Below the pieces are notes generated by a model. It saw only the letters and a program-made list of their open reading frames with translations, was not told the origin of the DNA and searched no databases. Below are positions 11,594 to 45,754 of a stretch of DNA of 64,000 nucleotides, one piece after another. Made by a program: the position numbers and the translations under genes. Within the stretch, counting starts at the first letter, position 1; every line of letters starts with the position of its first letter. The stretch is taken from positions 31,806 through 95,805 of the forward strand of contig DASZXA010000016.1 of assembly GCA_035546455.1 (NCBI GenBank), in the 5' to 3' direction. The DNA comes from Pseudolabrys sp. Its GTDB lineage: Bacteria > Pseudomonadota > Alphaproteobacteria > Rhizobiales > Xanthobacteraceae.

Positions 11594-11608
11594 CGAATGG
11601 GCGCGTGT

Positions 11609-11802: not shown

Positions 11803-11930
11803 CGTATGTTTAAGGGGTGGATAGGCCAAACTGCGGACTAAAATTGGTGTGATCGATGCCCATCTATGCAGATACAAACGGGCAACGCGCCGCTAGCCGA
11901 GCGGCTGAGCCGCAACCGGACCGCAGCACC

Positions 11931-30300: not shown

Positions 30301-33300
30301 TTTCGACCTCTCGGCGGGAGGAAACACATTCACCAGTGCGATCACCGGCACCGGTGAAGTGGTGGTGCAAGGCAACAACGTCCTTAGTCTTCAGAGCAAC
30401 GGAAATACCTACCAGGGCGGCACCACGATCATAAATGGCGGCGTCGTCGTTGTCCGTGACGACCGCAATCTTGGTGATGCGAATGGAAGCGTGACGCTCG
30501 GTGATGCAACGACCGCCGGCGCGCTCGCGAACGCAATCACGATGACAGTCGGTGCCTCGCGCACCATCACCCTTAATGATGGCGGTGGCAACGGCGGCAT
30601 TCTGCAAGCCGGCGGCGGCACCGTGATGACGGTGGACAGCAAGATCACCGGCGCCGGTATGCTGAACGCGAACGGGTTCGGCACGCTGGTGCTGACGAAT
30701 ACCGCCAATGACTACAGCGGCGGGACCTTTATCAGCAACGGCACGTTGAGCATCGCCTCCGACGCGGTGCTGGGCAATGTCAGTGGCGACGTTTCCATGT
30801 ACAACGCCACATTGGCTGCCACCGACACGTTCACGTTGAACTCCGGTCGCACGGTTACGTTGAGTGGCCCGGGCGGCGACACGATCGATGTCGCGTCCGG
30901 CAAGACGCTCACAATTGATGGGCAAGTCACGGGCACGGCCCACCTTACCGTCGCCGACACCGGCACATTGGTGCTGACCAACACCGGCAACAACTATTCA
31001 GGCGGCACCACCGTCAACGCCGGCGCGACACTGCAAGGCAACGCTTCGAGCCTGCAAGGCAACATCACCGACAACGGCACGGTGGTCTTCGATCTTCTCC
31101 CGGTCAATGGAGTCTATACCGGCGCGCTGTCCGGCAACGGCTCGGTGGTCGTGCAGGGGAACGGCAGCGTTTCCTTCGCAAACACAAGCAACAGCTATTC
31201 CGGCGGCACGACGATCAAGCAGGGCGCTGTTCTCGTTATTAGTTCGGACAGCCAGCTCGGCAACGTCAATGGCGGCGTCACATTGGGCGATGCCTCGACG
31301 CATGGCTCGCTGGCGTCTTCAGGCTCGTTGACGCTGGCGGGAACACGGACAATCACGCTCGCCGGCGGCGGCGGGTATTTCCTGCCGGCGGGCGGGACCG
31401 TGATGACGGTTGACAGCAAAGTCACCGGCACCGGCACGCTGACCGTCAACGACTCTGGCACTCTGGTGCTGACGAATGTCACGAACGACTACAGCGGCGG
31501 TACATTCGTCAATAACGGCGGCACGTTGAGCATCGCCTCCGACGCCGTCCTTGGCAACATCGCCGGCGGTGTCACGCTCTTTGGCTCGAAGCTCGCGGCG
31601 ACGGACACTTTCACACTGGGTTCCACCCGCACGGTCACGTTGAGCGGTGGTAACGACACGATCGACGTCGCGTCAGGCAAGGTTCTGACAATCGCAGGGC
31701 AGGTGACGGGCACGGGCGCGCTGGTTGTTACGGACTCCGGTACGCTGGTATTGGGGAACGCGACCAACAACTATTTGGGCGGCACCACCGTAAACGGGGG
31801 TGCGACGGTCAGCATCGGCGACGATGGCGCGCTCGGCTCAGGCAATCTCAGCCTTGGCGATGCATCCACGAGCGGTACGCTGAAGGCGACGGGCACGTTC
31901 ACTTTGTCGTCCGGCAGGACTGTAACCTTGAATGACGGCGGCAGTGTCATCGATACCGCCGCGGGCCAGACTTTCACCGTCGCGTCCAAAATCACCGGCA
32001 CCGGTGGCCTCACTGTCACCGACACCGGAACGTTGGTTCTCATCAACACCAACAACGACTATTCCGGCGGCACGACAATATCCGGCGGCGGCAGGTTGAG
32101 CATCGACTCCGATGCTTTGCTCGGCAATGCCGGCGGCGGCGTCACGTTCAATGGCGGCACCCTTATCGCTTCGGACGATTTCACATTGTCGTCAGGCCGG
32201 ACGGTAACGCTCGGCGTCGGCGGCGGAACGTTCGATGCGCTCACAGGCAAGACGCTGGCGGTTGCCGGACAGGTCACTGGCGGCGGTGCGCTTGCCATCG
32301 GCGGCGCGGGCACCGTTGTCCTGACCAACGCGGGCAACAATTACAGCGGCAGCACGACCGTTTCGGGTGGTGCCACCTTGAGTGTCGGCGCTGCGGGCGT
32401 CCTCGGCAGCACGAGCGGTCTTGTTCTCGACAACGGCACTTTTGCGGCGACCAACAGCTTCACAGTGTCGAGCGGTGTGTCGCTTGGCGCGGGCGGCGGC
32501 ACCGTCGATACCGCAAGCGGCAAGACGCTGACTTTCTCTGGGCAAATTACCGGCGCTGGCGCCCTTACCGTGGCTGATAGCGGTACTTTGGTGCTGTCGA
32601 ACGCCGGCAACAACTATTCCGGCGGCACGACGGTCAATAGCGGTGCGACGCTTCAAGGCACGACATCGAGCCTGCAAGGCGCCATCACGGATAATGGTGC
32701 GGTCGTGTTCAATCAGGCCACGACCGGAACCTACGCTGGCTTGCTGTCCGGTAGCGGGGCCGTTGCCGTTGACGGTGGCGGCAATGTTACCTTCAGCAAC
32801 ACGGGCAACAGTTACGCCGGTACGACCGTGAAGGGCGGCAGCACGCTGACCGTCGATGCAGCCGGCGAAATCGGCTCCGGCGCACTGAATCTCGGCGACG
32901 CATCGACCGCCGGCACGCTTGCCGCTGCGAATACGTTCACCTTGTCAAATGCGGTCTCGCTCGGTGCAGGTGGCAGCACTGTCGATACCGCCAGCGGCAA
33001 GACACTGACACTCTCCGGCCAGATTACCGGCAACGGCGCACTTGTGGTGGCAAACAGCGGCACGCTGGTTTTGGCGAATGCTGGCAATAACTATTCCGGC
33101 GGCACGACCGTTAATAGCGGCGCAAATCTTCAGGGCACGACCGCCAGCCTGCAAGGCGCAATCGTCGACAACGGAACCGTCATTTTCAACCAAGGGACAA
33201 CCGGCACCTATGCTGGCGCTCTGTCGGGTAGCGGCGCAGTGACGGTCGATGGCGGCGGCAACGTCACCTTGAGCAATGCGGCCAACAACTACGCGGGCGG

Positions 33301-35446
33301 GACGCTTGTCAAAGGCGGCAGCACATTGAATTCCAATGCGGCAGGCCAGCTCGGCTCCGGCGCATTGAGCCTCGGCGATGCATCGACCGCCGGCACTCTT
33401 GCCGCGACCGACACCTTTACGATGGCGAACGCACTGTCGCTTGGTGATGGCGGCAGCACGGTCGATACCGCCAGCAGTAAAACATTGACGATTTCGGGTC
33501 AGGTCACGGGCACTGGTGGGCTTACGGTTGCCAATGCCGGCACGCTGGTTTTGAGCAACGCCGGCAACAATTATTCGGGCGGCACGACGATTAACAGCGG
33601 AGCGACCTTGCAAGGCGGCACGTCCAGCCTGCAAGGCAGCATCCTCAACAACGGCACGCTGGCGTTCAATCAATCCACCGACGGCACGTTCGTGAGCGCC
33701 ATCTCAGGCTCCGGCGCGGTCACTAAGAGTGGTACCGGCAATGTGACGTTCAGCGCCACGAGCAACTACACCGGCGCTACGACCGTCAACGGGGGCATTC
33801 TCTCCGTCAACGGCGATATCACCACCTCCAGCGGCATCCTCGTTAACAGCGGCGGCATCCTCGGCGGCGGTGGCTTCGTGCCGACCACGGTCATCGCCAG
33901 CGGCGGCACGCTGGCGCCGGGCAATTCAATCGGCACGATCACGGTCAACGGCAACCTGACCTTGAACTCCGGCGGCACCTACCGCGTCGAAGTCGACGCG
34001 TCGACGTCGGACAAGACCATTGTCATAGGCAGCGCGACGCTCGCCGGCGCATTGCTCGTGGTGCCGAGCGCGCGCATCACGACGTCGACCGTCTATACGA
34101 TCATGGATGCGGCCAGCTACGCCGGTGCCTTCGATACGACGTCGGTGAGCAATCCCTCGTTCGGCCGGGTGACCAGTGTGACGGTGTCCGGCAGCGACCT
34201 GCTGCTGACGCTCGGGCCGGGAACTGTTTCGCTTCCGGGTACCGCCAATGGCAATCAGACCAATGTTGCCAACGGCATCAACAACGCGCTCAACGCTGGC
34301 TCCGTCCCCAGCGCGCCGTTCACGACGTTGCTCGGCTACACGGGCACACAGCTTACGAATGCGCTGAGTCAGATATCCGGTCAGTCTTCGACCGGCAGTT
34401 CGACCGGCGGCATCCAGATGATGAACTCGTTCATGTCGATGATGCTCAATCCGTTCGGTGGAGCTCCGGAAGGCAATCAGGGCGCGATCGGTTACGCGCG
34501 CGCGTTCGGCGCTGGCGCTGGGGAGAAAACCGTTTCGCCGGAAGTTGCAGCCGCTTATGCAGCGGTGACGCCGAAAGACCGTCAGGCGGGTACCTTCGAA
34601 TCCCGCTGGTTCAGCTGGGCTCAGGTTTATGGCGGTTACAATACGACAAATGGCAGCGCCGCTTCGGGGACGAACGACGCCATCACGCGCATCGGTGGAA
34701 TCGTGGCTGGCCTCGATTATCGCGCTGGGCCCGACCTCGTGTTCGGTTTCGCCATGGGCGGCGCTGGACTGAACTGGAGCCTCTCTCAGGGTCTTGGCGG
34801 CGGCAACAGTGACTCGATGCAGATTGGCGCCTATGTGTCGCGGTCGTTTGGCCCGGCCTATCTCTCCGGCGCCGTGTCTTATGCGTGGCACGACATGACC
34901 ACGGATCGGACCGTCACCGCAGTGGGGATCGAGCGCGAGCACGCGACCTTCAATGCCACGGGCTTTGGCGGGCGTTTGGAAGGCGGCTACCGCTTCAATC
35001 TTCCTGCATTCAACATGACGCCTTATACCGCGTTGCAGGTGCAGCAATTCCACACGCCGGCTTACAGCGAGCGGGATCTGTCAGGCGTTGGCGCATTTGC
35101 CTTGAGCTATGACTCCCGCACCGTCACCGCCACGCGGTTCGAGCTTGGCTCGTGGTTCGAGAAGCTTGTCACGCTCGACAACAGGGATGTGCTCGCGCTC
35201 AGAACACGGTTCGCGTGGGCACACGATCATGCAAGCGGCGGTTCGCTGGGCGCCGCCTTCCAGGGGATGCCCGGTTCGAATTTCGTTGTAAATGGTGCGG
35301 CGGCGCCGAGCGACTCGCTTTTGCTGACCGCAGGCGCGGAATATCGGTTCACCAACCACGTCACCCTGGGCGCCAAGTTTGACAGCGAACTCGCCAGTCG
35401 CTCTCAGACCTACACGGGTCTTGGGACGGTCAAGTTCGACTGGTAG
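27362..35446 (+). CDS. large autotransporter (type Va) adhesin with glycine-rich domain and autotransporter-associated beta-strand repeats
   Basis: Extended signal peptide, GGAI/FxxN motifs, many NYSGGTTVN repeats, C-terminal beta-barrel ending VKFDW. Confidence 0.93.
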   Translation: MQGAGVGRRAGGPAVGRFFTSLRSVVVSLVLAVQAAWVFAPGVASATTYDANDTASLQAAIASVNAGAGGDTINITANITLSTELNAITKGVTITGNGNTISGNNQYRIFFVAAGSGNAVNISSLTLANGYAKGGNGGTEGGGGMGAGGAIFGMSGNITLTNVSFAGNAAQGGTGGGNGIVGGGGGLGGDGGTYNGSNYSGGGGGIGVNADGGTSTTAGSAGILVGSAGGGSGSGGTAGGINGGGGGGSGSNGAGGGGVGGGNGGSNGGNGGFGGGGGGAGGGVAGHGGFGGGGGGGYFGAIAGGSGGFGGGGGGGQIAAGGGFGGGNGSSSGLSGGGGGMGAGGSVFVCSATVDAACSATLTISNTANSTMDGTVNGGGSAGTGGTGAALGGSMFITGSTAAGLSAATGTTTTISNQIYGVNDQGLALSGGGTFVLGSSSNTFNGLTVSGTGTTVSVSGNGQMGTGTITFGDGTGIKFTAGGTYTNNVKVEGDPTFDTTGNTVTYTGQITDGSIPGDVEVIGGGTLVLTNTTNSYSGGTVVKDNSTLSLSAAGQIGSGSLTLGDASTSGTLAATNTFTLSNDVSLGAGNGAIDTASGKTLTVSGQITGTGHLTVTDTGTLVLSNTGNNYSGGTTVNSGATLQGTTSTLQGDILDNGAVVFSQATTGTYSGQLSGIGAVTITGGGNVTLGNTGNNYSGTTSVNGGSTLTITAAGQIGGSTLALGDASTSGTLAATNTLTLSNNVTLNAGGGTVDTANGQTLTLSGQITGTGGLTVADTGTLVLTNSSNNYSGGTTVNNGATLQGTTSSLQGAITDNGTVVFSQATTGTYSGALSGSGAVTVTGGGNVAFTNTGNNYSGGTTVKGGSTLTLDAAGEIGSNTLTLGDASTRGTLAAANTFTLANVISLGLGNGTIDTANGKTLTVSGQITGSGGLTVADTGTLLLTNNANNYSGGTTINSGATLQGTGSALKGNILDNGTLVFDLSAGGNTFTSAITGTGEVVVQGNNVLSLQSNGNTYQGGTTIINGGVVVVRDDRNLGDANGSVTLGDATTAGALANAITMTVGASRTITLNDGGGNGGILQAGGGTVMTVDSKITGAGMLNANGFGTLVLTNTANDYSGGTFISNGTLSIASDAVLGNVSGDVSMYNATLAATDTFTLNSGRTVTLSGPGGDTIDVASGKTLTIDGQVTGTAHLTVADTGTLVLTNTGNNYSGGTTVNAGATLQGNASSLQGNITDNGTVVFDLLPVNGVYTGALSGNGSVVVQGNGSVSFANTSNSYSGGTTIKQGAVLVISSDSQLGNVNGGVTLGDASTHGSLASSGSLTLAGTRTITLAGGGGYFLPAGGTVMTVDSKVTGTGTLTVNDSGTLVLTNVTNDYSGGTFVNNGGTLSIASDAVLGNIAGGVTLFGSKLAATDTFTLGSTRTVTLSGGNDTIDVASGKVLTIAGQVTGTGALVVTDSGTLVLGNATNNYLGGTTVNGGATVSIGDDGALGSGNLSLGDASTSGTLKATGTFTLSSGRTVTLNDGGSVIDTAAGQTFTVASKITGTGGLTVTDTGTLVLINTNNDYSGGTTISGGGRLSIDSDALLGNAGGGVTFNGGTLIASDDFTLSSGRTVTLGVGGGTFDALTGKTLAVAGQVTGGGALAIGGAGTVVLTNAGNNYSGSTTVSGGATLSVGAAGVLGSTSGLVLDNGTFAATNSFTVSSGVSLGAGGGTVDTASGKTLTFSGQITGAGALTVADSGTLVLSNAGNNYSGGTTVNSGATLQGTTSSLQGAITDNGAVVFNQATTGTYAGLLSGSGAVAVDGGGNVTFSNTGNSYAGTTVKGGSTLTVDAAGEIGSGALNLGDASTAGTLAAANTFTLSNAVSLGAGGSTVDTASGKTLTLSGQITGNGALVVANSGTLVLANAGNNYSGGTTVNSGANLQGTTASLQGAIVDNGTVIFNQGTTGTYAGALSGSGAVTVDGGGNVTLSNAANNYAGGTLVKGGSTLNSNAAGQLGSGALSLGDASTAGTLAATDTFTMANALSLGDGGSTVDTASSKTLTISGQVTGTGGLTVANAGTLVLSNAGNNYSGGTTINSGATLQGGTSSLQGSILNNGTLAFNQSTDGTFVSAISGSGAVTKSGTGNVTFSATSNYTGATTVNGGILSVNGDITTSSGILVNSGGILGGGGFVPTTVIASGGTLAPGNSIGTITVNGNLTLNSGGTYRVEVDASTSDKTIVIGSATLAGALLVVPSARITTSTVYTIMDAASYAGAFDTTSVSNPSFGRVTSVTVSGSDLLLTLGPGTVSLPGTANGNQTNVANGINNALNAGSVPSAPFTTLLGYTGTQLTNALSQISGQSSTGSSTGGIQMMNSFMSMMLNPFGGAPEGNQGAIGYARAFGAGAGEKTVSPEVAAAYAAVTPKDRQAGTFESRWFSWAQVYGGYNTTNGSAASGTNDAITRIGGIVAGLDYRAGPDLVFGFAMGGAGLNWSLSQGLGGGNSDSMQIGAYVSRSFGPAYLSGAVSYAWHDMTTDRTVTAVGIEREHATFNATGFGGRLEGGYRFNLPAFNMTPYTALQVQQFHTPAYSERDLSGVGAFALSYDSRTVTATRFELGSWFEKLVTLDNRDVLALRTRFAWAHDHASGGSLGAAFQGMPGSNFVVNGAAAPSDSLLLTAGAEYRFTNHVTLGAKFDSELASRSQTYTGLGTVKFDW
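29246..33770 (+). repeat. modular intragenic repeats in the autotransporter passenger
   Basis: Homologous NYSGG anchors at 29246, 29726, 30206, 30992, 31769, 32057, 32339, 32612, 33089, 33569 (spacings 480, 480, 786, 777, 288, 282, 273, 477, 480 bp). Confidence 0.88.
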
Positions 35447-35591: not shown

Positions 35592-36410
35592 TTATTTGCC
35601 TTTTGCGCGCCTTTTTTTCGAAGCCGCTGGTTCTTTTGTAGACATCCTCGGGCGTTTTGCTGGCCGGATAGTTGGCAAAATCGTAATCATTGTGTCAGCG
35701 CTGTCGTCATCGAACGACCGGCGCAAGCGCCCGATGTCGAGATGCGCTTCGAACATCTGCTGGAATTTCTGTTTGTCGCCATCGCGCAAGAATTGATACA
35801 GCGCGATGTGCTCCTGATGAAAAAGGCTTGCGTCGCCCGGCGCTTTGCCGATCTTGACCCACGCTTGCACCCAGATCTGGTGAACAAGGCTCTGCATACG
35901 CCGGAGCAATTCGTTCTGGCAGATAACTCCCAAAGCTCGCTCGAAGCTGACGATCAGATCGCCGCGTTCGTCGTCTTCGCCTATCAATTCGCTGCGCGCC
36001 TGAATTGTGTCCCAGACAAGCGCAAGGTTCTTGCTAGTCCGGTGCGGCCAGGCCGCCTCACCGATCGCGAGATCGATCGCATTGCGCAGAGGCGCAAGCT
36101 GCAGAATAAACTCGCGGTTATAAGGCAGTCCGCGTGTGAGGCTGGCGATCGTCGTGTCTTGTGCCGGGTTTGACACAAACGTGCCCGAGCCCTGCTGCGC
36201 TGTGACGCGCCCGTAACTTTCCAGCACTTTGAGTGCCATGCGCACAGACGCGCGGCTGACGCCGAGCTGCTCAGACAATTGGCGGTCACTCGGTAATTGA
36301 TCACCAGGCTGCAAGCCATTCGCGGCGATCACTTTCTCTAGGCGCTCGATCACCTCTTGATAGATCGCGATGCGCTGGATCGGCTCGAGATGAAAGCTGC
36401 GTTTGCCCAT
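35592..36410 (-). CDS. FadR/GntR family transcriptional regulator
   Basis: LQPGDQLPSDRQLSEQLGVSRASVRMALKVLESYG...QGSGTFV HTH, FCD domain; ATG 36410 preferred over the longer ORF call, which overlaps the divergent gene. Confidence 0.93.
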   Translation of the reverse strand: MGKRSFHLEPIQRIAIYQEVIERLEKVIAANGLQPGDQLPSDRQLSEQLGVSRASVRMALKVLESYGRVTAQQGSGTFVSNPAQDTTIASLTRGLPYNREFILQLAPLRNAIDLAIGEAAWPHRTSKNLALVWDTIQARSELIGEDDERGDLIVSFERALGVICQNELLRRMQSLVHQIWVQAWVKIGKAPGDASLFHQEHIALYQFLRDGDKQKFQQMFEAHLDIGRLRRSFDDDSADTMITILPTIRPAKRPRMSTKEPAASKKRRAKGK

Positions 36411-36444: not shown

Positions 36445-36471
36445 AGTGGACTGTCCACTATCCATTTGACA
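36445..36471. promoter_or_regulatory. operator palindrome AGTGGAC-T-GTCCACT next to a TTGACA -35 box
   Basis: Perfect 7-1-7 palindrome at 36445-36459 and TTGACA at 36466-36471 in the divergent regulator/operon spacer. Confidence 0.6.
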
Positions 36472-36559
36472 TCTAGCCATTTGTTCTTTCTAGTTGTCCG
36501 AAGGACCGACCAGCCCACGCTATTGCTGCGTTCGAACGGGTCTGTGTGTAGGACGATCG

Positions 36560-37402
36560 ATGCGTTATTCGCGCGAAGAAGTGCTGCGCCAACTGCGTGG
36601 TGAGGTAGCTGCCGGCAAGCCGATCGTGGTCGCGGGAGCTGGCACCGGGATTTCCGCAAAGTTCGCCGAAGCCGGCGGCGCCGATCTCATCGTCATCTAT
36701 AACTCTGGCCGCTATCGAATGGCAGGCCACAGTTCGGTCGCCGGCTTGATGGCCTACGGCGACGCCAATCAAATTGTTTACGAGATGGGCAACCGCGAGG
36801 TGCTGCCCGTCGTGAAGAAAACGCCAGTGATCGCCGGCGTCAATGGGACTGACCCGACCCGGCAGATGGACCATTTCCTCGGCCGCCTGGACGATCTTGG
36901 GTTCTCTGGCGTCATCAATTTTCCGACCGTCGGCTTGATCGACGGGCGCATACGCGCGGAACTCGAAGCGACCGGCTTGGGTTTCGAGCGCGAGATCGAA
37001 ATGATCCGTCTCGCGCGCAAGCGGTCCTTTTTCACGATGGTCTACGTCTTTACGCCCGAGGAAGCGCGGCTGATGGCCGACGCGGGCGCGGACGTGATTG
37101 TCGCGCATCTTGGCACCACTGTCGGCGGCACTACCGGCATGGGGAAGGAAGCGTCTGTCGCGCTCGAACGCGCCCCGGGCCAGGTCGACGCTATTGGTGC
37201 CGCTGCGAAAGAGATTAATCGCGAAGTATTGGTGCTCTCGCATGGAGGACCGATCGCGACACCTGAGGACGCTCGTTACGTGCTTGAGCGCTGTGACGCT
37301 GTCGGTTTCGTGGGCGCCTCAAGCATGGAGCGTTTGCCGGTCGAAACAGCGATTTCCGGCACGACGCGTCGTTTCAAAGACATTCAAATCCGCCGGCGCT
37401 AA
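36560..37402 (+). CDS. phosphoenolpyruvate hydrolase-like / TIM-barrel signal transduction family protein
   Basis: GAGTGISAKFAEAGGADLIVIYNSGRYRMAG, LMAYGDAN, NFPTVGLIDG, HGGPI, GFVGASSMERLP. Confidence 0.92.
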   Translation: MRYSREEVLRQLRGEVAAGKPIVVAGAGTGISAKFAEAGGADLIVIYNSGRYRMAGHSSVAGLMAYGDANQIVYEMGNREVLPVVKKTPVIAGVNGTDPTRQMDHFLGRLDDLGFSGVINFPTVGLIDGRIRAELEATGLGFEREIEMIRLARKRSFFTMVYVFTPEEARLMADAGADVIVAHLGTTVGGTTGMGKEASVALERAPGQVDAIGAAAKEINREVLVLSHGGPIATPEDARYVLERCDAVGFVGASSMERLPVETAISGTTRRFKDIQIRRR

Positions 37403-37430
37403 TTCGTCGGCAGAGGCAACGGAGGACGTA

Positions 37431-38237
37431 GTGAAGCAGGGATTGGTTTGGGATTGGGACAAGCTCAAGCAGGGACTCGCCGATAGCGTGACGATCATCG
37501 TCGGCGGCGCGCGGGGAACAGGTAAGCAGGCGGCGCTGTCGTTACTGCAGCTTGGCGGATCGGTCGCGATCGGCGACATCAACCGCGAGCGTCTCGATAA
37601 AACGATGGTCGAGTTTAAGGCCGCGGGCCACACCAAAGCTCTGGCGGTGCCCACTGACATCACCAAGCCCGATCAGGTGCGCAATCTCGTCGACCAGACC
37701 GTCAAGCATTTTGGCAAGCTCGACAACGTCGTTTTCGCGGCTGGTGCCTATCGCGCCCAAAAGTCGAGCCTTGAGACCGATCTCGAAGAATGGCGTCTGA
37801 TCGTCGATTCCAATCTGACCGGCGCATTCTTGATCGATCAAGCCGCGATCCCGCACATGATCAAGGCGGGTGGCGGTAACATCGTCCACATCTCGTCGAA
37901 TGCGGGTCGCACTGTCAGCACATTTCTCGGCTGCCATTACACGGCCGCTAAGTCGGGCATTCTGGGTCTCACCCGCCATTTCGCAAAGGAATTCGGCGAC
38001 AAGGGTATCCGCGTAAATTCGATTGCTCCGGGTGGGGTCGTCGGCGAACGCATGACCGATCTCATCACAGAGCTGCATCGCGAGCAGATGCTCGTCGATA
38101 TTGCGAAGAACACGCCGCTCGGCCGCAACGTTGAAGAGCGCGACGTGGTCGGAGCGATCCTTTTCCTGCTGTCCGATCTGTCGGGCTTCATCACCGGTGC
38201 ATCGCTCGATGTCACCGGCGGCATCTACATGCTCTGA
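37431..38237 (+). CDS. short-chain dehydrogenase/reductase
   Basis: GGARGTG, HYTAAK, RVNSIAPG; GGAGG RBS then GTG 37431. Confidence 0.9.
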   Translation: MKQGLVWDWDKLKQGLADSVTIIVGGARGTGKQAALSLLQLGGSVAIGDINRERLDKTMVEFKAAGHTKALAVPTDITKPDQVRNLVDQTVKHFGKLDNVVFAAGAYRAQKSSLETDLEEWRLIVDSNLTGAFLIDQAAIPHMIKAGGGNIVHISSNAGRTVSTFLGCHYTAAKSGILGLTRHFAKEFGDKGIRVNSIAPGGVVGERMTDLITELHREQMLVDIAKNTPLGRNVEERDVVGAILFLLSDLSGFITGASLDVTGGIYML

Positions 38238-38252
38238 GGTCGGGGACGCGCT

Positions 38253-39515
38253 GTGGCCAAGACGATCGCTCTCTTGGGTGCTCTGGACACGAAGGAAGAT
38301 GATTTTGCCTTCGTTCGATCGGAGATCGAGCGTCGCGGCCATCGCGCACTGCTGATCGACGTCGGCGTTCTAGGCGGGCCACAGCAGCTCCGCCCCGACG
38401 TCACGCGGAACGATGTCGCGGCTGCCGGCGGAAGCCAACTCCGCGATCTCGTCGCGCGTCAGGATCGCGGTGAAGCTGTGACCGCAATGGCACGCGGGTC
38501 CGCCATACAGCTTCGGCGGTTGTTCGATGCCGGAAAAATCGATGCCGTGATGGCGATGGGCGGCGGAGCGGGTACGACGATCGGCGCTGAAGCGATGCGC
38601 GGATTGTCCATTGGCGTGCCGAAGCTCCTCGTTTCAACCGTGGCCTCGGGCAATACCGAGCCGTACATCGGCCTTTCCGATATCGTCATGATGCCGGCCG
38701 TTGCCGATATCGCGGGGCTGAATCGGATCAGCCGGGGAGTCTATGCACGCGCTGCTGGCGCGATCTGCGGCATGGCTGATGCAGCCACCGCTGCGAGGGC
38801 GTCGGATCGCCCGCTTGTCGCAGCGACCATGTTCGGCGTCACCACGCCCTGCGTTCTTCGCGCCCGCGAGCGCCTCGAAGCGGCGGGGTGCGAGGTCGTT
38901 GTATTCCACGCGACCGGAGCCGGCGGCCGAACGATGGAGCAGCTCATCACGGATGGGCTTGTCGACGCGGTACTTGATATCACCACCACGGAATGGGCCG
39001 ACGAGCTGGTCGGCGGAATTCTGTCGGCTGGGTCGCATCGGTTGGAAGCCGCCGCGAATAAAAGAATACCCCAGGTCGTCTCGGTGGGCGCGCTCGACAT
39101 GGCGAACTTTGGCGCACCGGAGACTATTCCGGCCAAATTCAAGGACCGTCGACTCTATCGCCACAACGCCTTGAACACGCTGTTACGGACAAATGCAGCG
39201 GAGTCGGCGGAGCTCGGACGGATCATTGCAGAGAAGCTCAATCGCGTGACATCTCCGGCCGTTCTGCTCCTGCCGCTGCGCGGGATGTCCGCGCTCGACG
39301 CACCGGGAAAAGATTTTGACGATCCGCGGGCCCGCGCGGCGCTCTATGACGCCCTGCGTACGAATGTCGACCGCAAAAAGGTCGAGGTTCGTGATGTCGA
39401 CTGCCACATCAACGATCCGGACTTTGCTGACATAGCAGCCTCAACTTTGCTGGATCTTCTGGCGCAATCCCGTGGAGCCCATACGGATCGCGTTCAAAAA
39501 AGGAGTGTGAATTAA
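38253..39515 (+). CDS. Tm-1-like ATP-binding domain protein (UPF0261)
   Basis: LGALDTK, MGGGAGT, GVPKLLVSTVASG, ATMFGVTTPCV, VFHATGAGG, DITTTEWADELVGG, GALDMANFG. Confidence 0.93.
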   Translation: MAKTIALLGALDTKEDDFAFVRSEIERRGHRALLIDVGVLGGPQQLRPDVTRNDVAAAGGSQLRDLVARQDRGEAVTAMARGSAIQLRRLFDAGKIDAVMAMGGGAGTTIGAEAMRGLSIGVPKLLVSTVASGNTEPYIGLSDIVMMPAVADIAGLNRISRGVYARAAGAICGMADAATAARASDRPLVAATMFGVTTPCVLRARERLEAAGCEVVVFHATGAGGRTMEQLITDGLVDAVLDITTTEWADELVGGILSAGSHRLEAAANKRIPQVVSVGALDMANFGAPETIPAKFKDRRLYRHNALNTLLRTNAAESAELGRIIAEKLNRVTSPAVLLLPLRGMSALDAPGKDFDDPRARAALYDALRTNVDRKKVEVRDVDCHINDPDFADIAASTLLDLLAQSRGAHTDRVQKRSVN

Positions 39516-40523
39516 ATGTCGGCTTCTTTAAGCAATCGCGTTGGCGTCGCTCTCATCGGGCCGGGCCGTATCGCGACTGCTCATCTCGCTGCTGTCGGCG
39601 CCGGCAAGGATATTGCCGATCTCGTCGCCATTGCCGGTCTGCCCGAAGAGTTGAAGCGGACGCAGGAACTCGCGGCGCGGTTTGGCGCGGCGAAGTCGCT
39701 GACCTCGACTGCTGATGTGTTCAAGGATCCGGCGATTGCGGCGGTCATCATCACGACCGGAAATCACTTGCATGCGCCGTTGGCCATCGAGGCGCTTAAC
39801 GCTGGCAAGCATGTCCTCGTCGAGAAGCCGCTCACCACGTCGACGGCCGACTGTGACGCGATGATCGCGGCGGCAAAAAGCAACAACCGGATTCTGATGT
39901 CCGCCCAATGCCGTCGGTATTTCAAGGGCGCGATGACGGTTCGCGAACGTATCGCGGAGCTCGGCCGGCCGCTCAACGTCATCAGCATTCTTGGAGTCTT
40001 TTCCGATCAGCCAAAGACCAATTGGTGGAGTTCGGCGAAATCTACCGGCGGTCTCGCCCTCGGACTCAATGGTCCGCACGTGGTCGACACCATGACGTGG
40101 TGGATCGGTTCGCGGCCGACCCGCGTGTATGCGCAGACGCAGCGCTACCGGCAGGTGTGGGAAGGCGAGGATGAAGCTTCGCTGATGATTTCGTTCGAAG
40201 ACGGCAGCATGGCGACAGGCCACGTGTCGCTCAACATGAAGCACGATATCAACGAGCGCGTCATCGTCGGCCCCAAGGGGATGATGAAGCTCATCAACGA
40301 TCGCGAGCTTTGGCTTAATGGCGAGAAAATCGTCGAAGAGCCTGTGACGCCCTACATCGATGGCGACATCAGCTTCGAACGTCAATTCCGCGAATTTGCG
40401 TCCGCTATCCGTGACGGACGCCAGCCATTGGCGTCCGCCGAGGACGTGCGGCCGTCCGTGATGGTGCTGGAAGCCGCCCTTGAATCCGCCGCACGCAATC
40501 AAGCGGTCGATCTGCCGCAATAG
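39516..40523 (+). CDS. Gfo/Idh/MocA family oxidoreductase
   Basis: IGPGRIA, HVLVEKPL, GPHVVD. Confidence 0.92.
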   Translation: MSASLSNRVGVALIGPGRIATAHLAAVGAGKDIADLVAIAGLPEELKRTQELAARFGAAKSLTSTADVFKDPAIAAVIITTGNHLHAPLAIEALNAGKHVLVEKPLTTSTADCDAMIAAAKSNNRILMSAQCRRYFKGAMTVRERIAELGRPLNVISILGVFSDQPKTNWWSSAKSTGGLALGLNGPHVVDTMTWWIGSRPTRVYAQTQRYRQVWEGEDEASLMISFEDGSMATGHVSLNMKHDINERVIVGPKGMMKLINDRELWLNGEKIVEEPVTPYIDGDISFERQFREFASAIRDGRQPLASAEDVRPSVMVLEAALESAARNQAVDLPQ

Positions 40524-40537
40524 GAAGAGTCGCGTAA

Positions 40538-41983
40538 ATGAATAAGCCAGTTCAGCCGAATGCTGTTGCCGAAGTCCGGGGTGGGCCGATCGTCGGGCGG
40601 CGGATCACCGAGGAGCTCGCGGCATTCTGTGTCGGCCTTAAGGCCGATGCCATTCCTGCGCCGGCTTATGATGCGGCGAAGCGCTTCCTGCTCGATTTCT
40701 GCGCCGTTGCCTTGCGCGGCTCGCTCGAGCAGTCGAGCCAGATCGTCGCCAGGATGGTCGAACGTTTGAGCCCTGCGCGCTCCGACGGTTCTCAGGTGAT
40801 CGGGCACGCCGTCCGCCATAGCCCTGAGTATGCCGCTCTCATCAACGGCACATCGCTGCACGGACTTGAGCTCGACGACATTCATCCCGTCGCCGCAATT
40901 CACCCGGGCGCTGCGATTTTTCCTGCCGTCCTCGCTATCGGCGAGGCGGTGAACGCATCCGGCAAAGATCTGCTCGCTGCGGTGATCGTGGGCTATGAGG
41001 TTTCGTGCCGCCTCTCGCGCGCATTGGTCCCCTCGGAACACGGGCCGCACGGCTTTCACTCGACCGCGACCTGCGGTGTGTTCGGCGCGACTGCCGCGAT
41101 CGCCCGTCTAATGGGCCTCACGGCGGACCAGTTGGTCAACGCGTTTGGGATCAATGGCAGCCAGGCGGCCGGCTCGGTTGAATTCCTGACCGATGGCGCA
41201 TGGACGAAGCGTATGCATCCCGGCTGGGCTGCGCACGGTGCGATCATCGCCGCGGAACTGGCCCGTGGCGGCTTCACCGGTCCGCGCCGAATCCTGGAAG
41301 GGAAGGCCGGCTTTCTACGGTCCTATTCGGATCGCCCTCAAGTCGATCGCGTACTGGCTGACCTGGGCGAAGGCTTCGAAATCCTTGGCGTTGCTGTGAA
41401 GCCACATGCGGCCTGCCGCTATAGCCAGGCCGCGATCGACGCCATCCTCGCACTGGTCGCCGAGCACGACGTGAAGCCCGATCAAGTCGATCGAGTGACC
41501 GTCGGCACCTTCCAAGGTGGAATCCCGATCGTTGCGGAGCCGCTTGCCGTCAAGCGGCGGCCTCGTTCGGTGGTCGATGCGCAATTCAGCATTCATTTCG
41601 CCAGCGCCGCCGCCATCATGCGGCGCGCCGTCACCCTCGCCGATTACAAACCCGACCGGATGTTTTCGCCCGAAATGCACGCGATGATGGACAAGGTCGA
41701 TTGCGTGCATGCGCCCGAACTCGACTCCCTGTTTCCCAAGCTTTGGCCCGCGAACGTGGAAATCGCCTTGCGCGGCGGCGCCAAGCTGCAGAAGCGGGTC
41801 GACGTTCTGCACGGCGATCCCGAAGACCCGCTCAGCTGGGACGAATTGATCGGCAAGGTGGATACAGTCGCGGCCGACGTCCTGCCGAAGGAGCGCCGCG
41901 CTTTGCTCGTCGCCGGCGTGCGCGATCTCGAAAATCGCTCCGTGCGCGCCTTCGCCGAGTTGCTGCGGAGACCGGCTGCATGA
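40538..41983 (+). CDS. MmgE/PrpD family protein
   Basis: LHGLELDDIH...HPG, GFHSTATCG, KRMHPGWAA, KPHAACRY. Confidence 0.93.
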   Translation: MNKPVQPNAVAEVRGGPIVGRRITEELAAFCVGLKADAIPAPAYDAAKRFLLDFCAVALRGSLEQSSQIVARMVERLSPARSDGSQVIGHAVRHSPEYAALINGTSLHGLELDDIHPVAAIHPGAAIFPAVLAIGEAVNASGKDLLAAVIVGYEVSCRLSRALVPSEHGPHGFHSTATCGVFGATAAIARLMGLTADQLVNAFGINGSQAAGSVEFLTDGAWTKRMHPGWAAHGAIIAAELARGGFTGPRRILEGKAGFLRSYSDRPQVDRVLADLGEGFEILGVAVKPHAACRYSQAAIDAILALVAEHDVKPDQVDRVTVGTFQGGIPIVAEPLAVKRRPRSVVDAQFSIHFASAAAIMRRAVTLADYKPDRMFSPEMHAMMDKVDCVHAPELDSLFPKLWPANVEIALRGGAKLQKRVDVLHGDPEDPLSWDELIGKVDTVAADVLPKERRALLVAGVRDLENRSVRAFAELLRRPAA

Positions 41984-42017
41984 AGCGGATCTTCAGCAAC
42001 ATTCTTGGGATTGCGGC

Positions 42018-42533
42018 ATGAAGAAGCTCTCGGACGCTGTCGCTTTTGTTGCCGGGGCCGTCGTTTGCGTGCTGCTCGTTGCGGCGTGCGTCATCGTCTT
42101 TACCGAGGTGCTGCTGCGCTATCTGTCGCTCGGTTCGCTGGCGTGGGCCGACGAAGCAGCGCGTTTCCTTTTCATCTGGATGTCGCTGCTCGGCGCTGCC
42201 TTGGGCGTCAGGGAAGGCATCCATTTCACCATCAATTTCATTTCCGATGCCGTTCCGAACCAGGTTCGCCGTGGCCTTGTCTTGATTGCCGCGGTCGGAA
42301 GCAGCCTCGTTTATCTCGTGATGATCGTGGAAGGCTGGCGCTTCGTCATTTTCAACCAGACTCAGCTGTCGCCCGCACTCGATATGTCTATGAGCGTTCC
42401 TTATCTCGTCGTGCCCGTTAGCGGCGCTCTGATGCTGTTCTTCACGTGGACCAATGTCGTGATGAACTGGAAGCATCCAGGAATGCGGCCCCCGCTGCTT
42501 GACGAATCGTCACTGCCGAACGCGGTGGAATAG
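42018..42533 (+). CDS. TRAP transporter small permease (DctQ)
   Basis: Four TMs, WADEAARFLFIWMSLLGA, EGIHFTI. Confidence 0.92.
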   Translation: MKKLSDAVAFVAGAVVCVLLVAACVIVFTEVLLRYLSLGSLAWADEAARFLFIWMSLLGAALGVREGIHFTINFISDAVPNQVRRGLVLIAAVGSSLVYLVMIVEGWRFVIFNQTQLSPALDMSMSVPYLVVPVSGALMLFFTWTNVVMNWKHPGMRPPLLDESSLPNAVE

Positions 42534-42542
42534 GGGCGTCGC

Positions 42543-43823
42543 ATGGCCATATTACTGTTCGGCTGCTTCCTGGGATTGCTTGTTCTTGCGGTACCGATCG
42601 CGCTGAGCCTCGGCCTATCGAGTCTCATCGTGCTCTTTTTCGGCGGTTTCCCGTCGGCCGTCTTGGCTCAGAAGATGTTTACGGGCCTCGACTCATTCCC
42701 GTTCCTTGCGGTACCTTTCTTCATTCTTGCCGGATCGCTGATGGAAACGGGCGGCATTTCCGCCCGTTTAGTGCGTCTCGCGACCGTTATGGTCGGCCAT
42801 ATCCGCGGCGGTCTGGGCATGGTCGTGGTCGTCGCCACGATATTCTTTTCCGATATTTCCGGCTCGTCGGTCGCCGACACCGCGGCGATCGGCTCGATCA
42901 TGATCCCGACGATGCTTAAGCGGCGCTATCCGCCGACGATTGCCGTTGCAATCGTCGCGGCTGCCGGCGCCGCGGGCATTCTCATCCCGCCGTGCATCAC
43001 GATGATCATTTACGCGCTCGTGACCAACGTATCGGTCGGCTATCTGTTCGCGGCTGGCTTTGTCCCCGGCGCGTTGATGGCGCTCTCGCTCATGGCGCTG
43101 ATCTATTACATCGCGCGCCGTGATGGCCTCCCGGCGGAGCCGCGCGCAACCTTCGCCGAATTTCGGATCGCGTTGTGGGACGCGATCCCGACCATGTTCA
43201 TGCCGGTGATCATCCTCGGCGGCATCTTGTCCGGTGTTTTCACCGCAACTGAATCGGCCGTAGTCGCCGTTGTATATGGCGCATTTCTCTCGCTCATCGT
43301 TTATCGCGAGTTGCGCCCACGCGATCTCCCGGCAATTTTGCTGAACACCGCCAAGCTGACCGGCATGGTCATGCTGGTCGTTGGGATGTCGACGACCTTT
43401 GCTTGGGTGCTGACGACGCAGCAAGTGCCGCAGAATCTGACGGCATGGATGCTCAGCATTTCAGACAGGCCTTGGGTTTTCCTGCTGATGGTCAACGTGC
43501 TGTTGCTGATCGTCGGGACATTCATGGACGCGACTGCCGCGGTCGTAGTGCTGATGCCGCTGCTCTATCCGATCGCGCAGCATATGCACATTGATCTTGT
43601 TCATTTCGGCATCGTCATCACGGCCAATCTCGGCCTCGGTCTCATTCATCCGCCGCTCGGTATCGCGCTCTTTATCGCATCGGGCATTGCCAAGGTGCCG
43701 GTCGAGAAAGTGATCAAACCGATGCTGCCGTTTCTCGCGGTGCTGATCGCTGCCTTGCTCATCATCACCTACGTCCCCGTGATTACTTTGTTCGTTCCAA
43801 GACTACTCGGTTATCCGGGCTGA
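42543..43823 (+). CDS. TRAP transporter large permease (DctM)
   Basis: FPFLAVPFFILAG, ISGSSVADTAAIG, GILIPPC, FTATESA, HFGIV, PPLG. Confidence 0.95.
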   Translation: MAILLFGCFLGLLVLAVPIALSLGLSSLIVLFFGGFPSAVLAQKMFTGLDSFPFLAVPFFILAGSLMETGGISARLVRLATVMVGHIRGGLGMVVVVATIFFSDISGSSVADTAAIGSIMIPTMLKRRYPPTIAVAIVAAAGAAGILIPPCITMIIYALVTNVSVGYLFAAGFVPGALMALSLMALIYYIARRDGLPAEPRATFAEFRIALWDAIPTMFMPVIILGGILSGVFTATESAVVAVVYGAFLSLIVYRELRPRDLPAILLNTAKLTGMVMLVVGMSTTFAWVLTTQQVPQNLTAWMLSISDRPWVFLLMVNVLLLIVGTFMDATAAVVVLMPLLYPIAQHMHIDLVHFGIVITANLGLGLIHPPLGIALFIASGIAKVPVEKVIKPMLPFLAVLIAALLIITYVPVITLFVPRLLGYPG

Positions 43824-43853
43824 AAAATCACTTACAAAAATGGGAGAGGAAAT

Positions 43854-44885
43854 ATGAAGGATCACAAGAGAAATAGTGCCGTGAGTCGGCGTTCCATTCT
43901 GAAGGCTTCTGTCGCCGCGGCGGCTGTCGGCGGTTTCGCTAGCTTCCGCACTCGTCCGGCGCGGAGCGCGACCGTCACGCTGCGTATCGGCAACGTCCAG
44001 GCCCCGACGCACGCCAACAGCCGCGCTCAGGATGTGTTCAAGAGCGAGCTCGAAAAACTGTCGGGTGGCCAGTTCAAGGTTGAGAGCTATCCGAACGGAC
44101 AGCTCGGCGGTATCCGGCCGCAAGTCGAAGCGACCAAGGCCGGCATTCAAGAGATGGTCGTCAGCAACCCCGCGATGATGTCCACCTTCGCGAAGGACAT
44201 GGACGTGATGAATTTGCTGTTCATGGCCAGCTCGCAGCAAAAGGTATGGGATGCCGTTGAGAAGGGTGAGCTTGGCAAGCGGCTGGCGGTCGATGCCGAG
44301 AAGTCAGGCTTTGTCCTGCTCGGCTGGTGGGCGCTCGGCGCGCGTCACATGCTCAACAACAAGCGGCCGATCAACGTGCCGGATGACCTCAAAGGCTCGA
44401 AGATGCGGGTCCAGGTCAGCCCGGTCTGGGTCAAGTCGATGCAGGCGATGGGTGCGAATCCCGTCAGCATGGATTTCGTCGAGGTCTACGGAGCGCTGCA
44501 GACCGGCGTGATCGATGGCTACGAGAACCTGTTTGCCGACGTCTATAAGGGCAAGTTCTACGAGGTCGTCAAATACATGTCGCTCACGGCGCATCAATAC
44601 GATCTGTTCAACGTTTTCATCAACAAGCGGATCTTCGACGGCTACACGCCCGAGCAGCAGCAAATGATCCGCACTGCGATGAACACGGCAACGGCCTGGC
44701 AGCGCAAGCAGCAGGAAGCCGATCAGCAGGAAGCTCAGGAAGCCCTGAAGAAGCTGCTGACCATGAACGAAGTGTCGGATGCAAACCGCAAGCTCTTCGC
44801 CGAGCGGTGCAAGCCGATCTGGACCGAGTCAGAGCAGCGTCTCGGCAAGGATCTCGTTCAGTTGGCGATCAAGGAACTGACCTGA
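43854..44885 (+). CDS. TRAP substrate-binding protein (DctP) with Tat signal
   Basis: SRRSIL twin-Arg signal, KMRVQ, PVSMDFVEVYGALQTGVIDGYEN, KYMSLTAHQY. Confidence 0.93.
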   Translation: MKDHKRNSAVSRRSILKASVAAAAVGGFASFRTRPARSATVTLRIGNVQAPTHANSRAQDVFKSELEKLSGGQFKVESYPNGQLGGIRPQVEATKAGIQEMVVSNPAMMSTFAKDMDVMNLLFMASSQQKVWDAVEKGELGKRLAVDAEKSGFVLLGWWALGARHMLNNKRPINVPDDLKGSKMRVQVSPVWVKSMQAMGANPVSMDFVEVYGALQTGVIDGYENLFADVYKGKFYEVVKYMSLTAHQYDLFNVFINKRIFDGYTPEQQQMIRTAMNTATAWQRKQQEADQQEAQEALKKLLTMNEVSDANRKLFAERCKPIWTESEQRLGKDLVQLAIKELT

Positions 44886-44899
44886 GCTTGATCGCGAAG

Positions 44900-44931
44900 A
44901 AGCCGATCCGGGTTTTATCCCGGGTCGGTTT
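44900..44931 (+). other. 13-bp stem-loop after dctP (stabiliser or partial terminator)
   Basis: aagccgatccggg-ttttat-cccgggtcggttt with G-U pairs. Confidence 0.55.
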
Positions 44932-44961
44932 CGCTCTTCTGTTGCGCCAAGGAGAACAAGA

Positions 44962-45714
44962 ATGTTTCGGAATTGCAGCCTTGCCGGCAAGGTGGCCGTC
45001 GTCACCGGCGCCGGTGGCGGTATTGGCCGCGCCGTGGCGAACGCCCTGGCAGCCGAGGAGTGCCGCCTGGTGCTGTCGGATTATGAGAAAGGATTGCTCG
45101 AGCAAACCGCGGCCGCAATCAAGACGCCTGTCGTTTACATCAAGGCTGACGTGGCGAAGAAGTCGGATGCAGAGGCGGTCTTCGCATTGGCGGATCGCGA
45201 GTACGGACAGGTCGATATTCTGGTGACGTGCGCGGGCACCATGAGCACGCAACGCATCCTTGAGATGACCGAGGTGGAATGGGACCGCACCTTTTCGATC
45301 AACACCAAAGGGACTTTCTTCTTTGTTCAGCAGGCGCTGATGCGGATGTTGCCGCGCAAGTCAGGCCGCATTGTTGCTATTGCGTCGGACACGGCGAAGC
45401 GCGGCGGCGGCCGCACCGCCACGTCCGCCTATGCAGCATCGAAGGCTGCGGTCGTCACGCTGGTTAAATCCGTCGCGCGCGAAATCGGCGGCTCCGGCGT
45501 TGCGATCAACAGCATCTGTCCGGGGCCGACAGATACGCCGATGCACTCTGCGCTGAGCGCCGATGCCAAGGCCAAGGCGGCCGCGACTTTGCCGCTCGCG
45601 CGTTTCGCCCAACCGCATGAAATCGCCAACGCGGTGGTGTTTCTCGCCTCGGACGCAGCGAGCTTTGTCTACGGCGAGAGCTTCAACGTCGACGGCGGCG
45701 TGCTGATGGAATGA
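44962..45714 (+). CDS. short-chain dehydrogenase/reductase
   Basis: TGAGGGIG, AYAASK, INSICPGPTDT, GESFNVDGG. Confidence 0.93.
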   Translation: MFRNCSLAGKVAVVTGAGGGIGRAVANALAAEECRLVLSDYEKGLLEQTAAAIKTPVVYIKADVAKKSDAEAVFALADREYGQVDILVTCAGTMSTQRILEMTEVEWDRTFSINTKGTFFFVQQALMRMLPRKSGRIVAIASDTAKRGGGRTATSAYAASKAAVVTLVKSVAREIGGSGVAINSICPGPTDTPMHSALSADAKAKAAATLPLARFAQPHEIANAVVFLASDAASFVYGESFNVDGGVLME

Positions 45715-45754
45715 GCGGTAACGGCAAAGAAACGATTGACCGAGGAGAAGACTA

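Follow-up and report, generated by a model that had tools for sequence, protein, structure and literature searches.

Stand-alone UPF0261 and PF09370 TIM-barrel genes separated by a dehydrogenase gene in a putative catabolic cassette of Pseudolabrys sp.

The UPF0261/PF09370 pair and its closest described relatives

UPF0261 proteins and PF09370 ('phosphoenolpyruvate [PEP] hydrolase-like') TIM barrels are abundant (at least 8,000 candidates each, at E ≤1e-50 and ≤1e-20, respectively), and both families occur in bacteria, archaea, fungi, and plants. They are fused, UPF0261 first, in plant and fungal Tm-1-like proteins (PMC5028733), and they co-occur in phylogenetic profiles (COG5441 and COG5564, STRING score 0.988; PMC8963296). 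Here, we analyzed a 64,000-nucleotide stretch of DNA from Pseudolabrys sp. (contig DASZXA010000016.1; hereafter, the window), in which both families are encoded as stand-alone proteins at positions 36560–39515, separated by the gene of a short-chain dehydrogenase/reductase (SDR; this copy is termed SDR1) and followed by genes of a tripartite ATP-independent periplasmic (TRAP) transporter.

A single UPF0261 member has a demonstrated reaction. MarK of Novosphingobium aromaticivorans (Saro_1862; PDB 9MPY) is a stand-alone homodimer, active alone, that transfers a phosphoryl group from ATP to the phenolic hydroxyl group of acetovanillone and of similar phenols, releasing ADP, and its authors presented this in 2025 as the first catalytic function shown for the family (PMC12624787). 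An E-to-K change activated the protein, the evolved active form carrying K16, and G195, H219, and H304 were named as a conserved phenol-binding site (PMC12624787). The statement of a preliminary description of this locus, that neither family has an established reaction, therefore no longer holds for UPF0261; it stands for PF09370, for which the literature searched contained co-occurrence and evolution papers and no functional study. PF09370 has a single solved structure, that of its prototype Mll9387 from Mesorhizobium loti (PDB 2P10); this structural-genomics entry adds no functional information, its label 'putative phosphonopyruvate hydrolase' being the depositors' guess.

The window UPF0261 protein is a full-length member (PF06792, residues 3–178; PF23189, residues 186–402) and exceeds the NCBIfam cutoff for NF002674 (549 bits, cutoff 335), a model named 'hypothetical protein'. 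Its nearest structure is tomato Tm-1 (3WRY; E 1.3e-86, 294 bits), and it aligns with MarK over residues 7–404 (9MPY; E 3.2e-66, 227 bits, ~36% identity). D12-T13-K14 corresponds to D14-T15-K16 of MarK (the motif of Tm-1 K20 and MarK K16), so that the window protein natively carries Lys at the position of the activating E-to-K change. Across 120 UPF0261 homologues, no substitution occurs at D12, K14, G195, or N285, and few occur at T13 and M283 (conserved in 118 of 120). The hydroxyl-binding residues G195, H219, and H304 are all kept, so that the catalytic scaffold is conserved; four other contacts are replaced (see below), and the substrate pocket is not that of MarK. Three of the four replacements (M283, N285, and L348) also occur in the printed Tm-1 alignment, and position 196 is V, I, or M in the cassette-clade relatives that were checked, compared to N in most other homologues. 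A comparison of cassette and non-cassette UPF0261 proteins returned only five specificity positions (approximately D16, D238, A306, D373, and H385), on which we do not lean. The protein is a putative ATP-to-ADP phosphoryl-transfer enzyme, an activity demonstrated for MarK only.

Although the two-domain architecture and these residues are common to both proteins, their settings differ. MarK has no PF09370 partner and adjoins the acvCDEF carboxylase/phosphatase genes, whereas the window operon has neither carboxylase nor phosphatase and surrounds UPF0261 with an SDR, a Gfo/Idh/MocA oxidoreductase, an MmgE/PrpD-family protein, and TRAP genes. Tomato Tm-1 (PDB 3WRV–3WRY, N-terminal region) resembles the window pair in having both domain families and in residues shared at the MarK pocket positions; in line with the preliminary description, each window protein is a stand-alone relative of one half of this fusion (PMC5028733). 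However, Tm-1 is one polypeptide with UPF0261 first, whereas the window encodes the barrel and UPF0261 in two genes, in this order, on either side of an SDR gene, and Tm-1 is a eukaryotic fusion known as an inhibitor of viral replication rather than as an enzyme, in contrast to the bacterial catabolic operon found here.

The window barrel covers the whole PF09370 model (positions 1–267 of 267) and matches 2P10 over residues 2–276 (E 2.3e-89); no NCBIfam model matches it. In a Foldseek search of the PDB, its AlphaFold2 model (pLDDT 81.5, pTM 0.85) retrieved 2P10 first (TM 0.82–0.85), followed by generic TIM barrels. About 110 of its residues are invariant among close homologues, and the low-confidence segments of the model (residues 50–58, 123–126, 188–196, and 254–259) overlap invariant motifs; these four segments are probably mobile active-site loops.

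Three well-known sugar-acid and cyclitol pathways have comparable kinase-plus-barrel endings: the E. coli yiaK-S/ula pathway, with the kinase LyxK, the TIM-barrel enzyme 3-keto-L-gulonate-6-phosphate decarboxylase, and the TRAP transporter YiaMNO; the myo-inositol iol pathway, with IolG, the kinase IolC, the aldolase IolJ, and the aldehyde dehydrogenase IolA; and the DUF1537 OtnK/OtnC tetronate pathway. Their shared logic begins with dehydrogenases that yield a keto-acid or keto-sugar; once phosphorylated by a kinase, this compound is cleaved by an aldolase or decarboxylase, and the resulting aldehyde is oxidized or reduced. The locus studied here would share this logic with them, and it has TRAP uptake and a Gfo/Idh/MocA dehydrogenase as common elements. 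However, their kinases and barrels are not homologous to UPF0261 and PF09370, and the similarity of the window oxidoreductases and DctM to the named enzymes of these pathways lies below family cutoffs, making this an organizational analogy rather than membership.

A clade of SDR1–UPF0261 cassettes

The Pfam matches of the barrel, SDR1, and UPF0261 proteins are far beyond chance. The gene order barrel, SDR, UPF0261 that had been noted earlier was borne out by the Pfam scan (all on the + strand), as was the direct abutment of the UPF0261 stop codon on the ATG of the next gene (TAAATG) by the sequence, and the presence of dctQ, dctM, and dctP within the same gene run bears out the description of the operon as transport-linked (Table 1). 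The intervening SDR1 gene is 807 bp long.

We surveyed 80 loci from GTDB representative genomes of many phyla, in which UPF0261 was 49–58% identical among the matches listed. The barrel gene was directly adjacent to UPF0261 in 43 of them (36 with UPF0261 upstream of the barrel, six in the reverse order, and one convergent) and lay within ~6 kb in four more; 20 loci had no barrel despite adequate flanks, and 13 were truncated. The two families are thus usual neighbours in bacteria, as the preliminary description had it. Among the matches listed, barrel identity to the window was 53–61% across phyla and no GTDB relative exceeded 58% UPF0261 identity, the close relatives having come from protein-database and contig look-ups. 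No recurrent partner was found by Pfam among 117 immediate neighbours of the general pair (xylose-isomerase-like TIM barrel, 6; MR_MLE, 4; ThuA, 4), and in none of the 80 loci did an SDR gene lie between the pair.

A second set comprised 11 loci, found through UPF0261 or SDR1 in the protein database, whose contigs were readable. Identity to the window ranges from ~57 to 78% for UPF0261 or SDR1 across these loci: for UPF0261, 100% in the window itself (L081, soil metagenome), 78% in L082, 74% in L083, 66% in L084/L085, 62% in L086, 61% in L087, and 60% in L091 (all metagenomes), 60% in a Pseudonocardia metagenome-assembled genome (MAG; L088), and 59% in an Arthrobacter MAG (L093); for SDR1, 59% in each of the cultured species Microbacterium murale (L096; GCA_014635185.1) and Amycolatopsis jejuensis (L097; GCA_000717335.1). 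SDR1 lies directly upstream of UPF0261 in all 11 loci, with a gap of at most 20 bp, and every locus also contains a Gfo/Idh/MocA gene and a PF09370 barrel. A second SDR lies in or beside the cassette in 10 of the 11 loci: orthologues of the window SDR2 are 72–84% identical in L082–L085, and more distant SDRs adjoin the Gfo/Idh/MocA gene in L086, L087, and L091. An MmgE/PrpD gene is present in seven loci and absent from all three with a ShiA-like carrier of the major facilitator superfamily (MFS) and from L087, which has an ATP-binding cassette (ABC) transporter. The aldo-keto reductase (AKR) is conserved in L083 and L084/L085, and the actinobacterial cassettes adjoin an aldehyde dehydrogenase instead. 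The regulators vary (GntR, LysR, and ROK), with a dedicated one wherever the flank is visible.

The order barrel–SDR1–UPF0261–Gfo holds in eight of the 11 loci. In the other three (L086, L087, and L091), the barrel and Gfo/Idh/MocA genes lie on the opposite strand from UPF0261, and the barrel is a different paralogue (73–80% identical within the trio, 42–45% to the window barrel), while UPF0261, SDR1, and Gfo/Idh/MocA remain 57–64% identical to those of the window. This implies that the cassette needs some PF09370 barrel and neither one particular orthologue nor its co-translation with UPF0261.

The cassette recurs across Proteobacteria-like contigs and Actinobacteria despite rearrangements and regulator swaps. 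A further relative at 59% identity (L092) lacks the cassette, which places the boundary of the clade near 60%. The interposed SDR marks a discrete clade with a conserved enzyme set and interchangeable organic-acid carriers. The survey of SDR interposition called for in the preliminary description therefore separates two situations, with no SDR between the pair in the 80 distant genomes and the SDR1-to-UPF0261 arrangement fixed in the 11 close loci, and this conservation strengthens the proposal that the locus is a handle on the function of the pair. Whereas the context of the general pair is uninformative, the cassette clade is the exception in having fixed partner enzymes, carriers, and regulators. 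We found no earlier description of an SDR–UPF0261 cassette clade; what is new is this discrete clade. The pair, its co-occurrence, and UPF0261 as a kinase family were already known. Because the cassette occurs in cultured M. murale and A. jejuensis, the function of the barrel and the Tm-1-like protein becomes directly testable. An answer would show what the bacterial relatives of Tm-1, the virus-resistance protein of tomato, do, and it would probably bring to light a new pathway for a compound accessible in the rhizosphere.

Substrate, proposed pathway, and competing explanations

TRAP, tripartite tricarboxylate (TTT), and metabolite/H+ symporter (MHS) carriers are mostly organic-acid systems. 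Among the cassette loci, five carry a TRAP transporter, one TctABC (TTT), two an SBP_bac_1-type ABC transporter, and three an MFS carrier of the MHS family. The best model for these MFS carriers, that of the shikimate transporter ShiA, scores 346 bits, which is below its cutoff, and we treat this signal as a lead only. In the window, DctQ, DctM, and DctP are encoded together and TIGR00786 and TIGR00787 score above cutoff. With the exception of these generic TRAP models and NF002674, no NCBIfam equivalog reached its cutoff, whether against the operon proteins or against the carriers, binding proteins, and aldehyde dehydrogenases encoded at the related loci. Below-cutoff similarities link Gfo/Idh/MocA to inositol 2-dehydrogenase IolG (best match, 134 bits), the AKR to YdjG-type methylglyoxal reductase and L-glyceraldehyde-3-phosphate reductase, and the SDRs, generically, to hydroxycyclohexanecarboxylate and dihydrodihydroxybenzoate dehydrogenases. 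SDR1 belongs to a small and tight family (77 clusters at E ≤1e-40 in a database of 5.8 billion sequences) and has no solved-structure match at that threshold. Gfo/Idh/MocA matches scyllo-inositol dehydrogenase, aldose-aldose oxidoreductase, and PmdC weakly in the PDB, and the nearest structures of MmgE/PrpD (IDS epimerase, 1e-50, and cis-aconitate decarboxylase/IRG1) are of enzymes acting on polycarboxylates. The window sequence itself occurs in soil and in many rhizosphere metagenomes. Taken together, the carrier types, the relatives of MmgE/PrpD, the AKR or aldehyde dehydrogenase, the inositol-dehydrogenase-like Gfo/Idh/MocA protein, and the rhizosphere occurrence suggest that the substrate is a carboxylic acid with hydroxyl groups, probably of plant origin, and belongs to the sugar acids or the hydroaromatic acids.

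We tentatively propose, with a probability of about 0.45, that this region encodes the core enzymes of a conserved cassette by which such an acid, imported here by the TRAP transporter, is catabolized. SDR1, Gfo/Idh/MocA, and SDR2 (and MmgE/PrpD where present) would convert the imported acid to an intermediate with an activated hydroxyl, either enol or phenol-like or of the sugar type next to a carbonyl, with SDR1 acting directly before the kinase. UPF0261, as a MarK-like ATP-to-ADP kinase, would phosphorylate this hydroxyl, and the PF09370 barrel would process the resulting phosphorylated compound by chemistry of the lyase, aldolase, or decarboxylase type. An aldehyde-type fragment would then pass to the AKR, or to the aldehyde dehydrogenase in the actinobacterial versions, and the GntR/FCD protein would repress the operon at a conserved palindrome until the substrate is present. 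The support for the kinase step is the MarK precedent together with residue conservation; that for the barrel step is co-conservation, the Tm-1 fusion, and the analogy with the way in which the yiaK-S/ula, iol, and tetronate pathways end (kinase plus barrel). The retention of a PF09370 barrel even where it has been swapped for a 42–45% identical paralogue also counts for the catabolic-cassette reading. Of the sequence of events put forward in the preliminary description, ATP-dependent activation or isomerization of the imported substrate followed by cleavage in the TIM barrel, ATP activation followed by a barrel step remains the most economical reading, whereas cleavage, isomerization, and the identity of the substrate are inference only.

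A more specific form of this proposal makes the pair undescribed ATP-dependent enzymes, with UPF0261 phosphorylating a hydroxyl of acidic enol or phenol type that the adjacent SDR has produced and the barrel cleaving or rearranging a PEP-like enol phosphate. We consider it rather unlikely in this detail. If true, this would amount to a new route, defined by the pair, by which hydroaromatic or keto-sugar acids from plants are catabolized, and the ancestral enzymatic activity of plant Tm-1-like proteins would be revealed.

Several results weigh against the catabolic-cassette proposal. The MarK contacts to the substrate ring and ketone (T196, F283, I285, and H348) are replaced in the window protein by V196, M283, N285, and L348. 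The substrate site of MarK lies ~25 Å from its ATP site (PMC12624787). Of 120 UPF0261 homologues, 14 carry Ala in place of H219 (FAATG instead of FHATG; the window protein keeps His), so that this residue, which in MarK forms a hydrogen bond with the substrate hydroxyl, is not required throughout the family; with the two sites so far apart and this residue variable, the catalytic model borrowed from MarK is itself incomplete. For the barrel, 2-methylisocitrate lyase and KPHMT are matched at TM 0.5–0.56, and TrpA, CutC, Pdx1, IGPS, and triosephosphate isomerase score equally. Because these matches are generic (TM 0.5–0.59 for TrpA, 2-methylisocitrate lyase, CutC, Pdx1, and IGPS), lyase or aldolase chemistry is without structural support. 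Neither an AKR nor an aldehyde dehydrogenase was seen in four of the 11 cassette loci. DctP scores ~125–158 bits against its nearest solved solute-binding proteins, which is too distant for a ligand to be assigned. Finally, in addition to the two loci with SBP_bac_1-type ABC transporters, the actinobacterial loci adjoin a sugar-type (Peripla_BP_4) ABC transporter, and these carriers leave room for a neutral substrate.

The main rival explanation holds that UPF0261 and the barrel together make up one ATP-dependent enzyme, each as a subunit, and that no phospho-intermediate is set free. Such an enzyme could be a machine resembling PEP synthase or a carboxylase, or else an isomerase or ring-opening enzyme driven by ATP; phosphoryl transfer by the UPF0261 N-domain would activate a substrate held by the barrel. 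The fusion in plant and fungal Tm-1-like proteins (PMC5028733) fits this model, as do the direct adjacency in 43 of the 67 informative GTDB loci, the unusual conservation of both proteins across phyla, and the ~25 Å gap between the sites of MarK, which may call for a partner or for large domain motions. Among the matches listed, identity across phyla is 50–58% for UPF0261 and 53–61% for the barrel, of which about 110 residues are invariant in close homologues. The variable neighbours of the general pair are likewise what would be expected of a self-contained unit. However, MarK is active alone as a homodimer, and 20 of the 67 informative loci have no barrel within their flanks. Within the cassette clade, the two genes are split by an SDR and lie on opposite strands in three of the 11 loci, and the same three loci have exchanged the barrel for a paralogue while UPF0261 stays ~60% identical. 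The tightest linkage is that of SDR1 to UPF0261, which, together with the opposite-strand barrels, argues against an obligate co-translated complex of the two proteins here. We therefore regard the single-enzyme model as doubtful, although it is the strongest competitor of the catabolic-cassette proposal.

Less probable still is that UPF0261 is a MarK-type stand-alone kinase of phenolic or aromatic compounds and that the barrel catalyzes an unrelated step of the same pathway (as a dehydratase, isomerase, or aldolase) on a non-phosphorylated intermediate. The retained G195, H219, and H304 would suit such a kinase, the ShiA-like carrier of the actinobacterial cassettes would suit its substrate, and the generic similarity of the SDRs to hydroaromatic dehydrogenases fits an acid that is aromatized and then phosphorylated. 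Nevertheless, the window protein scores 294 bits against Tm-1 and only 227 bits against MarK, its pocket differs at the four contact positions given above, the operon has no carboxylase or phosphatase of the acvCDEF/hpeCBAD type, and the presence of a PF09370 barrel in every cassette argues for functional coupling. A regulatory or sensory role of the pair, or one in antiviral defence as in tomato Tm-1, which could draw on the historical annotation of PF09370 as 'TIM-barrel signal transduction protein' and on the binding of viral replicase by Tm-1 (PMC5028733), is highly improbable given that the genes lie within a run of enzyme and transporter genes, separated by short gaps or joined by a stop-start abutment, that each cassette locus with a visible flank has a dedicated regulator of the GntR/FCD, LysR, or ROK type, that no PADLOC defence model matches the five core proteins, and that the precedent of MarK is enzymatic.

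Gene organization, regulation, and other contexts of the pair

The ten genes of the run (36560–46765) are tightly packed and all on the + strand, with intergenic gaps mostly of 0–40 bp and one of 76 bp 3′ of dctP; independent gene calls on the public contig gave identical boundaries. Shine-Dalgarno-like motifs precede the GTG start of SDR1 by a few bases (GGAGGA) and the ATG of Gfo/Idh/MocA (AAGGAG).

Table 1 Features of the operon and its surroundings (positions in the window).
Feature	Position	Strand	Size	Evidence or remark
2694-aa ORF	27362–35446	+	2694 aa	ORF translation
GntR/FCD (FadR-type) regulator, divergent	35592–36410	-	272 aa	PF00392 GntR, PF07729 FCD
Palindrome AGTGGAC-T-GTCCACT	36445–36459			Perfect 7+7; hairpin and inverted-repeat scan
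TTGACA, candidate -35 box	36468–36473			3′ of the palindrome
PF09370 'PEP hydrolase-like' TIM barrel, stand-alone	36560–37402	+	280 aa	Pfam, E 6.7e-116
SDR1, classical SDR, interposed	37431–38237	+	268 aa	Pfam adh_short_C2, 4e-54; GTG start
UPF0261/Tm-1-like ATP-binding protein, putative kinase	38253–39515	+	420 aa	PF06792, 7.8e-58; PF23189 UPF0261_C, 5.6e-92
AAGGAG Shine-Dalgarno	39500–39505			Ahead of the Gfo/Idh/MocA ATG
TAAATG stop-start	39513–39518			UPF0261 stop, Gfo/Idh/MocA start
Gfo/Idh/MocA NAD(P) oxidoreductase	39516–40523	+	335 aa	Pfam
MmgE/PrpD-family protein	40538–41983	+	481 aa	Pfam
TRAP dctQ	42018–42533	+		PF04290
TRAP dctM	42543–43823	+		PF06808
TRAP dctP	43854–44885	+		PF03480
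GC-rich hairpin	44899–44932	+	14-bp stem	Terminator-like scan; weak T tail
SDR2, second SDR	44962–45714	+	250 aa	Pfam
Aldo-keto reductase, final gene of the run	45755–46765	+	336 aa	Pfam PF00248
DusA-like tRNA-dihydrouridine synthase ORF	46876–47898	+		Assigned by translation only

The spacer between the divergent regulator gene and the barrel gene contains the perfect palindrome and, 3′ of it, the candidate -35 box. Compared to L082, in which an 83% identical GntR/FCD orthologue occupies the same position, a block of ~30 nt (GCAAAGTGGACTGxCCACTATCCATTTGACA) is near-invariant whereas the remaining spacer has diverged, and the proteins of the two loci are 69–91% identical. The palindrome and TTGACA block is a likely operator/promoter, the candidate operator of the regulator overlapping the promoter. 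A sigma-70 scan returned no promoter at its thresholds. Rfam matched no riboswitch or other RNA in the window. The hairpin between dctP and SDR2 may be a partial terminator or an mRNA stabilizer, a suggestion made by inference from the sequence only, and could raise the level of the binding-protein mRNA relative to the downstream genes.

Several other arrangements of the pair were observed outside the cassette clade. In eight Firmicutes loci (L010, L019, L026, L050, L060, L062, L066, and L079), UPF0261 lies between two different PF09370 barrels, an upstream copy 35–43% identical to the window barrel, ~0.5–1.2 kb from UPF0261, and a downstream copy of the common type (53–57%). A UPF0261–barrel–cupin triad was found on Sinorhizobium meliloti pSymA (L094) and Rhizobium leguminosarum pRle248e (L095), and haloarchaeal plasmids (H10–H12, H16, and H17) apparently share it, judging from feature names only. 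The rhizobial triads lie behind a divergent regulator (annotated as TetR/AcrR in R. leguminosarum) and opposite a sugar ABC transporter, with a Xaa-Pro peptidase-family gene following the triad in R. leguminosarum. This triad is a second recurrent context, distinct from the cassette. The plasmid copies of Haloferax, Qingshengfaniella, Sinorhizobium, and Rhizobium were uninformative on the cassette itself, their contexts being of other kinds, such as TetR with UPF0261–TIM–cupin and ABC transporters of the sugar or branched-chain type. The Qingshengfaniella plasmid (L090) also encodes a 582-aa 'phosphoenolpyruvate hydrolase family' protein (10490–12238), about twice the normal length, that adjoins Gfo/Idh/MocA and cupin genes close to a normal UPF0261–barrel pair; it may be a barrel fused to another domain. 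Many Chloroflexota barrels are ~70–73% identical to the window barrel, and in a Chloroflexia MAG (L063; barrel at 11245–12078) the adjoining UPF0261 is only 55% identical to that of the window, which suggests either that the barrel evolves more slowly than its UPF0261 partner or that it has moved between lineages.

On the 3′ side of the operon, the DusA-like ORF begins 110 bp past the final gene; it is apparently an unrelated housekeeping gene that marks the end of the cassette. On the other side, the 2694-aa ORF directly upstream of the regulator gene had no Pfam match recorded in the contig look-up. With its Gly-rich N-terminal stretch, many modules of ~100 aa ('TGTLVLTNxxNxYSGGTT'), and a C-terminal end resembling a beta-barrel, it looks like a giant autotransporter adhesin.

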